In this document: one piece after another, positions 1-3,045 of the stretch | Layout of the letters: every line of letters starts with the position of its first letter | Position numbering within the stretch: position 1 is the stretch's first letter | From: Escherichia phage moha | Sequence record: MN850590.1 | Direction: 5' to 3' (one strand) | DNA length: 64,000 bases | Position numbers and translations under genes: made by a program | The notes under the pieces: generated by a model | Databases searched by the model: none | What the model was told of the DNA's origin: nothing | The model's input: only the letters and a program-made list of their open reading frames with translations

Positions 1-1755
1 AATGCTAATAAAGATTCTCGTGTTTTTCCAACTCAACGGGACCTTATGGCTGGTATTGTGTCTAAACACATTGCCAAAAATATGGTCCCGTCTTTTATTA
101 TGAAAGCGCATGAAAGCGGAATTATCCATTTCCACGATATTGATTATTCCCCTGCTCTTCCGTTTACTAATTGCTGTTTAGTCGATTTAAAGGGGATGCT
201 TGAGAACGGATTTAAATTAGGCAATGCTCAAATTGAAACGCCTAAATCGATTGGTGTTGCTACTGCAATTATGGCACAAATTACTGCACAAGTTGCTTCC
301 CATCAATACGGCGGAACGACTTTTGCTAATGTAGATAAAGTACTTTCTCCTTATGTTAAACGCACCTATGCAAAACATATTGAGGATGCAGAAAAATGGC
401 AAATCGCTGATGCGTTGAATTATGCTCAATCTAAAACAGAAAAAGATGTATACGATGCATTCCAAGCTTATGAATATGAAGTAAATACTCTTTTTAGTTC
501 AAACGGGCAAACGCCTTTTGTAACAATTACATTTGGTACGGGAACTGACTGGACTGAACGAATGATTCAGAAAGCAATTCTGAAAAATCGTATTAAAGGT
601 CTTGGTCGTGATGGGATAACTCCTATTTTTCCTAAACTTGTTATGTTTGTTGAAGAAGGTGTTAATCTTTATAAAGATGATCCAAACTATGATATTAAAC
701 AACTTGCGTTAGAATGTGCAAGCAAAAGAATGTATCCTGACATTATTTCGGTTAAGAATAATAAAGCTATTACCGGCTCATCTATTCCTGTTTCTCCAAT
801 GGGTTGTCGTAGTTTCTTGAGCGTATGGAAAGATTCGACTGGTAATGAAATTCTTGATGGACGTAATAATCTTGGTGTTGTAACACTGAATCTTCCTCGT
901 ATCGCATTAGATTCTTATATTGGAACCCAGTTCAATGAACAGAAATTTGTTGAATTATTCAATGAACGAATGGATTTATGTTTTGAAGCATTGATGTGCA
1001 GAATTAGTTCCTTAAAAGGAGTTAAAGCGACTGTTGCTCCTATTCTTTACCAAGAAGGTGCATTCGGGGTTCGTCTTAAACCTGATGACGACATAATTGA
1101 GTTATTTAAAAACGGTAGAAGTTCAGTGTCTTTAGGGTACATTGGTATTCACGAATTGAATATTCTTGTCGGTCGTGATATTGGGCAAGAAATTTTAACT
1201 AAAATGAATGCTCATCTTAAGCAGTGGACCGAAAGAACTGGATTTGCTTTTAGTTTATATTCTACTCCTGCTGAAAACCTTTGTTATCGCTTCTGTAAAC
1301 TCGATACAGAAAAATATGGAAGCGTAAAAGATGTTACTGATAAAGGCTGGTACACTAATAGTTTCCATGTTTCAGTAGAAGAAAATATTACTCCGTTTGA
1401 AAAGATTTCTCGTGAAGCGCCATATCATTTCATTGCGACAGGTGGTCACATTTCTTACGTTGAACTTCCTGATATGAAAAATAACCTAAAAGGTCTTGAG
1501 GCCGTGTGGGATTATGCTGCACAACATTTAGATTATTTTGGTGTTAATATGCCAGTAGATAAATGTTTTACATGCGGAAGTACCCATGAAATGACTCCTA
1601 CTGAAAACGGATTTGTTTGTTCTATTTGTGGAGAAACTGATCCTAAAAAGATGAACACAATAAGAAGAACATGCGGATATCTTGGAACTCCTAGCGTTGT
1701 TCCATGGAATTTAGGTAAAATGAAAGAAATGGTAAAACGAGTAAAACATGCATAG
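1..1755 (+). CDS. nrdD: Anaerobic ribonucleoside-triphosphate reductase NrdD (5' end outside window)
   Basis: Frame open to window edge; C-terminal glycyl-radical motif RRTCGYLG and Cys cluster CFTCGS...CSICGE; followed by nrdG as in T4. Confidence 0.9.
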   Translation, partial: NANKDSRVFPTQRDLMAGIVSKHIAKNMVPSFIMKAHESGIIHFHDIDYSPALPFTNCCLVDLKGMLENGFKLGNAQIETPKSIGVATAIMAQITAQVASHQYGGTTFANVDKVLSPYVKRTYAKHIEDAEKWQIADALNYAQSKTEKDVYDAFQAYEYEVNTLFSSNGQTPFVTITFGTGTDWTERMIQKAILKNRIKGLGRDGITPIFPKLVMFVEEGVNLYKDDPNYDIKQLALECASKRMYPDIISVKNNKAITGSSIPVSPMGCRSFLSVWKDSTGNEILDGRNNLGVVTLNLPRIALDSYIGTQFNEQKFVELFNERMDLCFEALMCRISSLKGVKATVAPILYQEGAFGVRLKPDDDIIELFKNGRSSVSLGYIGIHELNILVGRDIGQEILTKMNAHLKQWTERTGFAFSLYSTPAENLCYRFCKLDTEKYGSVKDVTDKGWYTNSFHVSVEENITPFEKISREAPYHFIATGGHISYVELPDMKNNLKGLEAVWDYAAQHLDYFGVNMPVDKCFTCGSTHEMTPTENGFVCSICGETDPKKMNTIRRTCGYLGTPSVVPWNLGKMKEMVKRVKHA

Positions 1756-2578
1756 GTATTATATAATTTATAAAATAACAAATATAATTAATTCAAAGGA
1801 ATATATCGGTGCGCATAGCACCGATAACATAAATGACGGTTATATGGGGTCAGGAACATTGATTCGTGCCGCTTTATTAAAATATGGTAGAAAAAATTTT
1901 AATAAAGAAATTTTACATGTTTTTGATAATGAAAAACAAATGTATGATAAAGAAGCTGAACTTGTAACCGAAGAGTATTGTCTAAAAGAAAATACATATA
2001 ATATTAAACCTGGTGGAAAAGGTGGAACTGCCTATGAACAGACACTTGAACATCGCCGTAAAAATAGTTTAGCAAATAAAGGTAAAAAGAGAACAGAAGA
2101 AACTAAAATAGCTATTTCACGTGCTTTAAAGAAATATAAACGTACGCCAGAGCATCAAGCAAATTTAAATAAAGCCGTAAGCATAGCTATGAAGCGAAAA
2201 GATGTTAGAAGTAAATTAGCTGGAGAGCGGTCTGAGAAAGATAAATTATCTATATCAAACGGTGTTAAAAAATATTACAATTCTTTGAGTGAAGAAGAAC
2301 GCGAACTTCATCGCAAGCGAATTATTGAAGGTAAAAAGAATTCTCCCATGTCATTGGAATCTAGACAAAAGCTTTCAAAAGCTTTAAAAGGGCTTCAAGT
2401 TGGTTCAAAAAATCCAATGTATGGAAAAATTTCTCCAACTAGCAAAACCGTTTCAGTTGACGGTATTAAATATGATTCAATTAAAAAGTGCTCAAATGCC
2501 ATAAAAGTTTCTAGACATCTTATACTAAAACGCTGTAATTCTACTGATGAAGCTTGGAAAAATTGGATATTATTATGA
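1748..2578 (+). CDS. Free-standing GIY-YIG family homing endonuclease
   Basis: N-terminal YIIYKITN...KEYIGAHS motif block, lysine-rich C-terminal half; overlaps nrdD stop (8 nt) and nrdG start (ATGA). Confidence 0.7.
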   Translation: MHRYYIIYKITNIINSKEYIGAHSTDNINDGYMGSGTLIRAALLKYGRKNFNKEILHVFDNEKQMYDKEAELVTEEYCLKENTYNIKPGGKGGTAYEQTLEHRRKNSLANKGKKRTEETKIAISRALKKYKRTPEHQANLNKAVSIAMKRKDVRSKLAGERSEKDKLSISNGVKKYYNSLSEEERELHRKRIIEGKKNSPMSLESRQKLSKALKGLQVGSKNPMYGKISPTSKTVSVDGIKYDSIKKCSNAIKVSRHLILKRCNSTDEAWKNWILL

Positions 2579-3045
2579 ATTATGATAGATTTTATCCTTG
2601 CGATTTTGTGAATGGCCCTGGTTGCAGGGTCGTTCTTTTCGTTACAGGTTGTTTGCATAAATGCGAAGGGTGTTATAATAAATCAACATGGAATGCTAGA
2701 AATGGTATTCCATTCACCGGAGAGACACTAGAACAATTAATTGAATGTTTGAATAATGATTATATAGAAGGATTGACTATAACCGGAGGTGACCCTCTCT
2801 ATCCTGATAACAGAGATGTGATTCACTCTGTGGTTCAAACTATTAAAAATCTTTATCCCAATAAAAGCATTTGGCTGTGGACAGGATATAAGTTTGAAGA
2901 TATTAAACAGCTAGAAATGCTTAAATATGTTGATGTTATTATTGATGGGAAGTATGAGAAAAATCTTCCGACTAAAAAGCTGTGGCGAGGATCAGATAAT
3001 CAGCGACTTTGGTCAAATACCGATGGGGTGTGGAAACATGATTAA
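2575..3045 (+). CDS. nrdG: Anaerobic RNR activating protein NrdG
   Basis: YPCDFVNGPG and CLHKCEGCYN (CxxxCxxC) motifs; ATG at 2575 preferred over TTG at 2554. Confidence 0.9.
   Translation: MNYDRFYPCDFVNGPGCRVVLFVTGCLHKCEGCYNKSTWNARNGIPFTGETLEQLIECLNNDYIEGLTITGGDPLYPDNRDVIHSVVQTIKNLYPNKSIWLWTGYKFEDIKQLEMLKYVDVIIDGKYEKNLPTKKLWRGSDNQRLWSNTDGVWKHD

Follow-up and report, generated by a model that had tools for sequence, protein, structure and literature searches.

The gene considered here, segH, was reportedly named by Sandegren, Nord and Sjoberg (Nucleic Acids Res 2005), with GenBank deposits AY262137–AY262139 for phages RB3, T6 and LZ2. In some relatives of T4 this GIY-YIG gene is present in place of mobC between nrdD and nrdG, as stated in two papers citing that work (bioRxiv 10.1101/2022.08.31.505936; PMC2988022), where site-specific cleavage by SegH and biased inheritance are credited to Sandegren et al. 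2005. PMC2988022 describes many free-standing endonuclease genes of T4 as promoter-less and as overlapping the upstream ORF, and gives the lifestyle of T4 SegF, SegG and SegE as that of a promoter-less or overlapping cassette, whose product cleaves a neighbouring gene in phages lacking the endonuclease, so that markers on the flanks are co-converted.

The DNA analysed here is a stretch of 64,000 nucleotides of Escherichia phage moha (sequence record MN850590.1), referred to below as the window. It carries an ORF between nrdD and nrdG which can be taken with high confidence to be the segH of T-even-type phages at its usual site, presumably homing by way of cleavage of segH-less genomes. As a discovery the ORF has little weight, given that segH was already named, assayed and annotated from 2005 onwards and that the present copy encodes the RB3 reference protein without change. 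What the analysis offers is a modest refinement, in that boundaries of the mobile block are defined and recognition sites are predicted for the SegH family and possibly for MobC.

The segH locus of phage moha

The SegH protein of the window showed no differences over 276 amino acids (0/276, 100% identity) to SegH of RB3 (AY262138.2; ABI48949.1) and was also 100% identical in PP01 and N2, with the RB3, PP01 and N2 genes differing by 2–3 nt, while six of the 276 residues differed in T6 SegH (ABI48947.1). Two synonymous bases, T at 2059 and G at 2392, are private to the window copy. The ORF is annotated as segH in the database entries of PP01, T6, RB3, LZ2 and KM16. It was matched by PHROG 314 ('homing endonuclease', E = 2.4e-60), the best NCBIfam match was TIGR01453 ('group I intron endonuclease', E = 3e-13, 50.2 bits, under the 56.05-bit cut-off), and 546 homologues were detected at E ≤ 1e-5. 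These matches, together with one to NUMOD3 (see below), exclude a chance ORF. The initial annotation had described a free-standing GIY-YIG homing endonuclease between nrdD and nrdG, a description upheld by the motif alignment, an I-TevI-like fold and the identity to RB3 SegH. The overlaps that it claimed on both sides were borne out by reading of the sequence: the segH ATG lies at 1748–1750 and the TAG stop of nrdD at 1753–1755, giving an overlap of 8 nt, and the nrdG ATG (2575–2577) and the segH TGA (2576–2578) share the sequence ATGA.

Table 1. Positions of the features of the nrdD–segH–nrdG locus within the window.
Feature	Position	Strand	Basis
nrdD, anaerobic ribonucleotide reductase large subunit, 5' end beyond window edge	1–1755	+	Pfam, T2 alignment
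Glycyl-radical motif codons (RRTCGYLG), last stretch in common with segH-less alleles	1663–1686	+	Sequence reading
Recoded nrdD tail, candidate SegH target/immunity region	1687–1755	+	Fixed differences, codon changes
10-mer CATGCATAGG, with the start codon of segH (M-H-R) and the stop of nrdD	1747–1756	+	
segH CDS, free-standing GIY-YIG homing endonuclease, 276 aa	1748–2578	+	ATG start
GIY-YIG catalytic domain, ~aa 1–92	1748–2023	+	Family alignment, profile, Foldseek, model
Long helical linker with NUMOD3-type repeats, ~aa 99–215	2042–2392	+	Pfam, model
C-terminal I-TevI-like helix-turn-helix DNA-binding domain, ~aa 226–275	2423–2572	+	Pfam (sub-cut-off), Foldseek
nrdG, activase	2575–3045	+	Pfam Fer4_12, E = 7e-49

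The frame of nrdD is open from base 1 of the window and its product was matched by the Pfam families NRDD (E = 2.9e-166) and Gly_radical (E = 6e-25). It aligned without gaps to residues 22–604 of the intron-less T2 NrdD with 98% identity, and the nrdG of the window is identical to that of T2 from its ATG onward. The absence of an intron from nrdD had been deduced from continuity through the glycyl-radical motif. The absence itself holds, as the T4-type intron site (window ~469–473) is uninterrupted and a Rfam scan of the whole window detected no intron and no other RNA family; the reason given does not, for the motif is the wrong place to look, the intron site lying ~1.2 kb upstream of it. In phage N2 this site carries an insertion of ~1,040 nt. 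It should also be noted that the reference to essential genes was too strong, given that the anaerobic reductase genes of T4 are dispensable for growth in aerobic laboratory culture.

Simple pattern scans of the + strand over bases 1–2578 found no sigma-70-like promoter, no late promoter (TATAAATA) and no MotA-box promoter, and segH appears to be without a promoter of its own. It would most likely be read from the nrdD transcript and translated at a low level by re-initiation at the 8-nt overlap. The overlaps, along with weak Shine-Dalgarno-like sequences, suggest that segH may be translationally coupled to its neighbours, and the ATGA shared by segH and nrdG would largely restore the ancestral ATGA coupling of nrdD and nrdG.

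Extent of the mobile block and the recoded nrdD tail

Among ~667–670 close relatives, defined as records with at least 90% identical flanks, segH was present in 69–72. The ORF is thus found in only about 70 of some 670 relatives, and most of those without it, T2 and RB69 being examples of segH-less phages of this kind, have an empty junction, a clean site at which nrdG follows nrdD with nothing between them but a shared ATGA. The copies of segH are 99–100% identical among themselves, whereas their flanks form a mosaic of 85–100% identity; diversity is 0.002–0.011 inside segH versus ~0.04 in the flanks. Near identity of the copies despite mosaic flanks suggests recent spread. In the Moonvirus KM16 the gene has 92% nucleotide identity to the window copy, with flanks of 60–78%. 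The proposal of a mobile insertion therefore stands, given the sporadic presence of the ORF, the empty junctions of relatives and an insert far more conserved than its surroundings.

The extent of the insertion has to be revised, however: the mobile block (~1651/1687 to 2574) is wider than the ORF and takes in a recoded tail of 22 codons of nrdD. Its right boundary coincides with the ATG of nrdG, as no fixed differences occur beyond that point and identity to KM16 drops at 2575. On the left, the block 1651–2574 of KM16 is 91–94% identical to the window, and its first part (1651–1686) reaches 94% versus 71% just upstream, which places the glycyl-radical codons inside the co-transferred tract. 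In KM16 this tract reaches into nrdD and not into nrdG.

All 23 informative fixed differences between phages with and without segH lie at 1688–1743. The tail encodes TPSVVPWNLGKMKEMVKRVKHA before the stop codon in the window, versus NPNERGFNLGKNKEIMHRVKHQ in segH-less phages, with 11 of 22 amino acids altered. Its diversity is 0.000 among segH-carrying phages and its divergence from segH-less phages 0.41. The last 24 codons of nrdD hold 11 nonsynonymous and 7 synonymous changes, whereas the 100 codons before them have 0 and 11, respectively. The tail was confined to ~80 segH-linked records, with no occurrence outside such alleles among 50,697 records, where the next best match had 75% identity with the conserved motif included. 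A tblastn search detected no donor lineage for it, and none of the ~72 genomes with segH had the ancestral tail.

The 10-mer at 1747–1756 (CATGCATAGG) exactly matches the codons for (I)MHR in ancestral nrdD, read in another frame. It is also the exact joint in hybrid phages, for example SHFML-11 and ELT1, which combine a segH-type nrdD tail with mobC and a mobC-type nrdG. By a rough estimate, such agreement of the start of segH with codons of ancestral nrdD would arise by chance in ~1% of cases.

The position of all informative fixed differences at 1688–1743, the entry of the tract into nrdD only, the placement of 47–48% identical relatives directly 3' of nrdD where nrdG is not adjacent and the occurrence of the same tail pattern in one such relative make the 3' end of nrdD the candidate region for SegH targeting or immunity. 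Such a target would comprise the glycyl-radical motif and the tail, and the recoded tail would be either a protected variant of it or a stretch that is obligatorily co-converted. The endonuclease-less alleles of two genera encode RGFN.GKNKE.MHR after the motif. It is put forward tentatively, as somewhat short of probable, that the 61-nt recoded tail (1687–1747) is a functional, cleavage-resistant part of the element and that the SegH family recognises nrdD just after the glycyl-radical motif. If so, every copy of segH would carry a rewritten, cleavage-resistant nrdD target and segH would have acquired its start codon from the M-H-R codons of nrdD. MobC would then mirror SegH by using the 5' third of nrdG, and the SHFML-11 and ELT1 hybrids would be resistant to both endonucleases.

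The divergence of the tail could also be mere foreign sequence brought in with segH. The tail would then be a piece of nrdD from an unsampled donor, unrelated to SegH specificity and kept linked because 40% divergence blocks recombination, with the target lying elsewhere; this is possible, if on the doubtful side. The high divergence would suffice to explain the linkage, the change of half of the amino acids goes beyond synonymous recoding, and the tail ends (...VKRVKH) like ordinary NrdD tails. The abstract of Sandegren et al. 2005 is moreover said to report that SegH cleaves the DNA of its own phage as well as that of segH-less phages. In that case the recoded tail would not confer full immunity, and SegH may instead target a sequence present in either allele, such as the codons of the glycyl-radical motif. 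Against a foreign origin without function stands the restriction of the tail to segH-linked alleles in the records searched, as does the 47%-identical family member, where the nrdD tail has diverged independently in the corresponding position. Furthermore, the endonuclease-less tails of two genera (RGFN.GKNKE.MHR.KHQ) are more alike than either is to its own endonuclease-carrying allele.

The moving unit consists of the 22 recoded nrdD codons and segH, from ~1651/1687 to 2574, and ends at the nrdG ATG. By analogy with the characterised Seg enzymes, SegH would cut a segH-less genome near the nrdD/nrdG junction in a mixed infection. Repair of the break by recombination on a segH-carrying template would then transfer segH, along with markers close to it, to the recipient.

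Domain organization and catalytic residues of SegH

In a family alignment of 36 sequences, residues Y8, Y19, G21, E69 and N85 were invariant. The GIY and YIG positions of SegH are I7-Y8 and Y19-I20-G21, with I20 invariant or nearly so, and they lie on two beta-strands (aa 4–12 and 18–25) of an AlphaFold model (pLDDT 86.6 overall, 94–98 in the N-terminal domain) with the spacing of 10–11 residues seen in the superfamily. In a profile alignment N85 aligns to N90 of I-TevI and E69 falls within one residue of E75, leaving a register uncertainty of one residue for the Glu. The catalytic residues expected of a GIY-YIG enzyme (GIY, YIG, Glu and Asn) are thus present on alignment, and invariant in the 36 sequences. 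No invariant Arg was found in the same alignment. Compared with the SegH profile, the stretch of I-TevI with R27 is inserted sequence, and R40 of SegH is Q in KM16. Where I-TevI has the R27 helix, the SegH model has a loop (aa 26–36) in which D30, Y32 and G34-S35-G36 are invariant. An alignable counterpart of R27 is likewise not identifiable across the SegE-like subfamily (PF19835), to which active T4 Seg enzymes belong according to Table 1 of PMC2988022.

A Foldseek search with the SegH model gave the catalytic and DNA-binding domains of I-TevI as its four best matches, with 1MK0 and 1LN0 for the catalytic domain (probability 0.99–1.00, target-normalised TM-score 0.59–0.64) and 1I3J for the C-terminal domain (probability 0.96). 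The catalytic domain of I-TevI was also the only PDB match for the profile of the family alignment. The E-values of these structural and profile matches are modest (5e-3 and 0.02), and I-TevI was reached only with the family profile, a single-sequence PDB search with SegH giving noise. Pfam NUMOD3 matched aa 200–228 with 33.8 bits (cut-off 20.4), I-TevI_DNA-bd was detected under its cut-off (E = 3e-4), and the GIY-YIG models of Pfam matched weakly, SegE_GIY-YIG likewise under its cut-off (E = 0.0024). Seven helices are present in the model between aa 100 and 213.

A segH that no longer homes, and persists as a decaying or domesticated remnant because its deletion would disturb nrdG expression, is very unlikely. 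Broken copies do exist, as in phage sutha, where the ORF ends at aa 31 because of a 4-nt insertion; no canonical Arg can be recognised in SegH, and T4 has defunct endonuclease genes such as I-TevIII (PMC2790892). However, the ORF of the window is intact and its product is that of RB3, PP01 and N2, the dN/dS of segH versus KM16 is 0.16, and near-identical copies amid mosaic flanks argue for recent spread. The lack of the Arg is a trait of the SegE-like subfamily as a whole, the active T4 Seg enzymes included (PMC2988022, Table 1).

An identity of the ORF as the endonuclease of a group I intron, or as some other mobile element such as a transposon or an HNH gene of the mobC type, can be dismissed, although TIGR01453 is its best NCBIfam match and some relatives have it annotated as an intron endonuclease: the window has no Rfam intron, the ORF overlaps both neighbouring CDSs and leaves no space for a non-coding RNA core, neither nrdD nor nrdG needs splicing to be complete, the insert was found to have no flanking terminal repeats, direct or inverted, and SegH has no HNH family match in Pfam, NCBIfam or PHROGs and is unrelated in sequence to T4 MobC.

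A perfect 9-bp hairpin (TATCGGTGC-GCATA-GCACCGATA) was observed on the + strand at 1804–1826, over the YIG codons; its membership in the segH system is uncertain. The fold of 1735–1850, around this hairpin, had a z-score of −2.6. KM16 has no substitution at 1767–1827, and the 4-nt insertion of sutha lies directly after the hairpin.

Comparison with other endonuclease systems

The closest systems are the segH copies of RB3, T6 and LZ2, which are this very gene, found at this locus with identical overlaps (8 nt and ATGA); nothing of substance differs in the window copy. I-TevI of the T4 td intron (1MK0, 1LN0, 1I3J) has its two-domain layout in common with SegH and aligns with it at the GIY, YIG, Glu and Asn positions. 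SegH differs in being free-standing whereas I-TevI is intron-encoded, in its much longer helical NUMOD3 linker and in having a loop instead of the R27 helix.

SegF, SegG and SegE of T4 are free-standing GIY-YIG homing endonucleases that belong with SegH in family and lifestyle, with insertion sites and target genes (56, 32 and uvsW) different from those of SegH. The DNA similarity of T4 segB to segH covers the N-terminal ~260 nt only, at ~68%. A Seg-like endonuclease of GAP161-like and Slopekvirus-like phages of Cronobacter, Klebsiella and Enterobacter is 47–48% identical to SegH over its full length, and its gene also lies directly 3' of nrdD with a diverged tail. In a pair of Klebsiella phages with and without this gene, the tail divergence starts inside the glycyl-radical codons and has an exact downstream boundary. 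Whereas segH overlaps nrdD, the gene of these phages is set apart from nrdD by ~50 nt with a hairpin, and nrdG is six genes away.

MobC of T4 is a free-standing HNH protein whose gene occupies the same nrdD/nrdG site as segH and overlaps both neighbours; Table 1 of PMC2988022 lists its activity and target as unknown. Like segH, mobC goes together with a hyper-diverged stretch in an adjacent gene, this being the 5' third of nrdG for mobC and the nrdD tail for segH. Two competing endonuclease genes share this site, each associated with a rewritten segment of a different neighbour, a picture which could help to explain why T4-like phages are locally mosaic near their anaerobic reductase genes.

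The nrdD–nrdG locus and the identity of the inserted gene

The initial annotation had placed a free-standing GIY-YIG homing endonuclease gene between nrdD and nrdG, overlapping the nrdD stop by 8 nt and the nrdG start as ATGA, and both overlaps were reproduced exactly in the sequence. The identities of nrdD (NRDD, E = 2.9e-166; Gly_radical, E = 6e-25) and nrdG (Fer4_12, E = 7e-49) are secure.

Coordinates of features at the nrdD–nrdG locus (window positions)
Feature	Position	Remarks
nrdD (T4-like phage)	1–1755	TAG at 1753–1755; frame open from base 1, 5' part outside the window
T4-type group I intron site in nrdD	~469–473	uninterrupted
Recoded nrdD tail	1687–1747	
segH ORF	1748–2578	ATG 1748 to TGA 2578; 276 codons
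Hairpin over the YIG codons	1804–1826	perfect 9-bp stem, 5-nt loop
nrdG	from 2575	start ATG 2575
Terminator-like hairpin, then T-run	2610–2635	+ strand, within nrdG 5' part
Sigma-70-like promoter match	2652–2679	10/12, extended −10; + strand, within nrdG 5' part

Searches against 50,697 phage records placed the window among Tequatrovirus-type phages. The ORF is annotated as segH in PP01, T6, RB3 and LZ2 and as SegH in the Moonvirus KM16, the reference sequences of the gene being the partial GenBank records AY262137–AY262139 ("NrdD, SegH, NrdG" of T6, RB3 and LZ2). The window protein shows no differences from that of RB3, PP01 and N2 and six from that of T6. The ORF is a textbook element already named segH; the earlier observation was correct and its interpretation essentially right.

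SegH matched PHROG 314 ("homing endonuclease", E = 2.4e-60) and exceeded the Pfam cut-off for NUMOD3, with a match to TIGR01453 (E = 3e-13, 50.2 bits) under the 56.05-bit cut-off of that model. Y8 (GIY), Y19 and G21 (YIG), E69 and N85 are invariant in a 36-member family alignment, and the PDB hits of its profile were confined to the I-TevI catalytic domain (E = 0.02–0.03). The four top Foldseek matches to the AlphaFold2 model (mean pLDDT 86.6; 94–98 for residues 1–90) were to the I-TevI catalytic domain (1MK0, 1LN0; probability 0.99–1.00) and DNA-binding domain (1I3J; 0.96), and an extended helical linker bearing NUMOD3-type repeats (about aa 99–215) joins the two domains. No equivalent of the I-TevI arginine R27 was found in the family alignment, profile or model; whereas I-TevI carries R27 on a helix, SegH has a loop at aa 26–36 with invariant D30, Y32 and G34-S35-G36. 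This looks like a trait of a SegE-like subfamily rather than a defect of the window copy.

The in-window NrdD aligned without gaps to residues 22–604 of the intron-less T2 NrdD, and Rfam detected no RNA families anywhere in the 64-kb window. The T4-type nrdD intron carries I-TevII. Phage N2 has ~1,040 extra bases at the equivalent site, and the intron is present in N2, F2, ELT1 and G8, some of which also possess segH. As the two co-occur in only some relatives, these mobile elements of the operon assort independently. It should also be noted that the sequence of the hairpin and promoter match within nrdG is conserved in T2 and RB69.

Distribution, mobility and expression of segH

The gene is present in 69–72 of ~667 records whose flanks share ≥90% identity with the window. 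Nearly all other records sampled (T2, RB69, G8, RB51, slur04, AV110, ECO07P3 and IME340) have an empty junction, with an ATGA overlap between the nrdD stop and the nrdG start. In nine segH-bearing phages, nucleotide diversity is 0.002–0.011 in segH versus ~0.04 in the flanks, which form a mosaic of 85–100% identity. These clean junctions, the conserved insert and its mosaic flanks bear out the proposal of a mobile insertion. No flanking repeats were found around the insert. The KM16 copy shares 91.7% nucleotide identity with the window, lying in a block (1651–2574) of 91–94% identity against 60–78% in its flanks, and the dN/dS of 0.16 between the two copies indicates purifying selection. The copy of phage sutha is decaying, broken by a 4-nt insertion (ATAA) at the equivalent of window 1828, directly after the YIG hairpin, whose frameshift ends the ORF at aa 31.

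Simple pattern scans of the + strand upstream of segH gave no promoter-like match of the sigma-70, late or MotA-box kind, a result that fits the promoter-less, overlapping cassettes of T4 free-standing endonuclease genes (PMC2988022). Only weak Shine-Dalgarno-like sequences precede the two start codons: GAG six nt 5' of the segH ATG and GGA seven nt 5' of the nrdG ATG. The ATGA between segH and nrdG reproduces the ancestral overlap of nrdD with nrdG, and translational coupling via overlapping stop and start codons is plausible. The region 1735–1850 folds with z = −2.6, and KM16 has zero substitutions at 1767–1827, though its segH is 8% diverged overall. By analogy with internal structures in other T4 endonuclease genes, the YIG hairpin might regulate segH expression.

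The recoded nrdD tail

The insert is larger than the ORF and also takes in the nrdD tail, which the initial annotation had not seen. The last 22 nrdD codons read TPSVVPWNLGKMKEMVKRVKHA before the stop in the window versus NPNERGFNLGKNKEIMHRVKHQ in T2, RB69 and T4. Comparison of nine segH-bearing with eight empty-site phages over 1400–3000 gave 25 fixed differences, 23 of them at 1688–1743 and two (2573–2574) being alignment edges at the junction, with none in 1400–1686 or 2575–3000. Within the recoded tail, segH-bearing phages have a diversity of 0.000 and diverge from empty-site phages by 0.41. Every segH-bearing record has this tail, and elsewhere among the 50,697 records it occurs only in about eight with mobC replacing segH, and in no other lineage. 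The block shared with KM16 starts at ~1651, inside the glycyl-radical codons, and ends exactly at the nrdG ATG. The segH start, ATG CAT AGG (M-H-R; 1747–1756), is identical to the ancestral nrdD M-H-R codons of EIMHRVKHQ-stop but out of frame with nrdD; a chance match is roughly estimated at ~1%, and capture from nrdD is a possible origin of this start codon. In the Mosigvirus FL18 (L010:1909–3400) nrdD is almost wholly missing, and a 222-aa Seg-like ORF after gene 49 ends in frame with the recoded tail (TPSVVPWNLGKMKEMVKRVKHA), followed by intact segH and nrdG.

An independent replicate came from the nearest distant SegH relatives (47–48% identity), which also lie directly 3' of nrdD. Their carriers are ~175-kb phage contigs and numerous GAP161-like and Slopekvirus-like phages of Cronobacter, Klebsiella and Enterobacter, and nrdG there is six genes away. 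Between one endonuclease-bearing contig (L013) and endonuclease-less KMI10, with flanks 99–100% identical, the nrdD tail diverges from within the glycyl-radical codons, with an exact downstream boundary. Endonuclease-less tails are alike in both genera (RGFN.GKNKE.MHR.KHQ), and in endonuclease-linked tails of both RGF becomes xP(W/M) and GKNKE becomes GK(M/Q)KE. Klebsiella-type phages (L013:3948–4001, L016:363–417) have ~50 nt between nrdD and the SegH-like gene, containing a GC-rich hairpin (GCGCCTTCAAT...ATTGAGGGCGC) ending ~5 nt 5' of the start codon, possibly a terminator or translational control element, which is absent in the T-even arrangement.

Candidate targets of SegH and MobC

Co-conversion must always include the tract from cut to gene, and co-transfer is restricted to the nrdD side; SegH would therefore be expected to cut endonuclease-less genomes within the nrdD 3' end, the recoded tail being a putative protective variant of its target. 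As the main alternative, the tail could be no more than foreign sequence brought in with segH, its linkage persisting because divergence is too high for recombination. SegH reportedly cleaves close to its own locus and homes in mixed infections. It is also said to cleave the DNA of its own phage, which would favour a foreign tail, or alternatively a target within the glycyl-radical codons common to both alleles.

T4 carries mobC (HNH family, "target unknown") at the segH site (PMC2988022 Table 1). In some T4 relatives the GIY-YIG gene segH takes the place of mobC between nrdD and nrdG (PMC2988022; bioRxiv 10.1101/2022.08.31.505936), both publications citing Sandegren, Nord and Sjoberg (2005). 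In the mobC phages T4, SHFML-11 and ELT1 the 5' third of nrdG (equivalent to 2575–2874) is hyper-diverged, differing by 41–47% from empty-site and segH-bearing phages over 2675–2874 before returning to 99% identity; codons 1–33 contain 11 synonymous changes and one nonsynonymous change. About eight records, including SHFML-11 (L008:2500–2640) and ELT1 (L009), are hybrids with the segH-type recoded tail followed by mobC and mobC-type nrdG. They switch exactly at the 10-mer CATGCATAGG and keep the ancestral GTTAAACACCAATGA out of frame 3' of it, so that R-V-K-H is encoded twice. In mobC phages, the nrdG divergence forms a mirror image of the nrdD tail recoding linked to segH, pointing to nrdG as a candidate for recognition by MobC. 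The recoded-tail pattern and this mirror image are modest, testable refinements to a known element.
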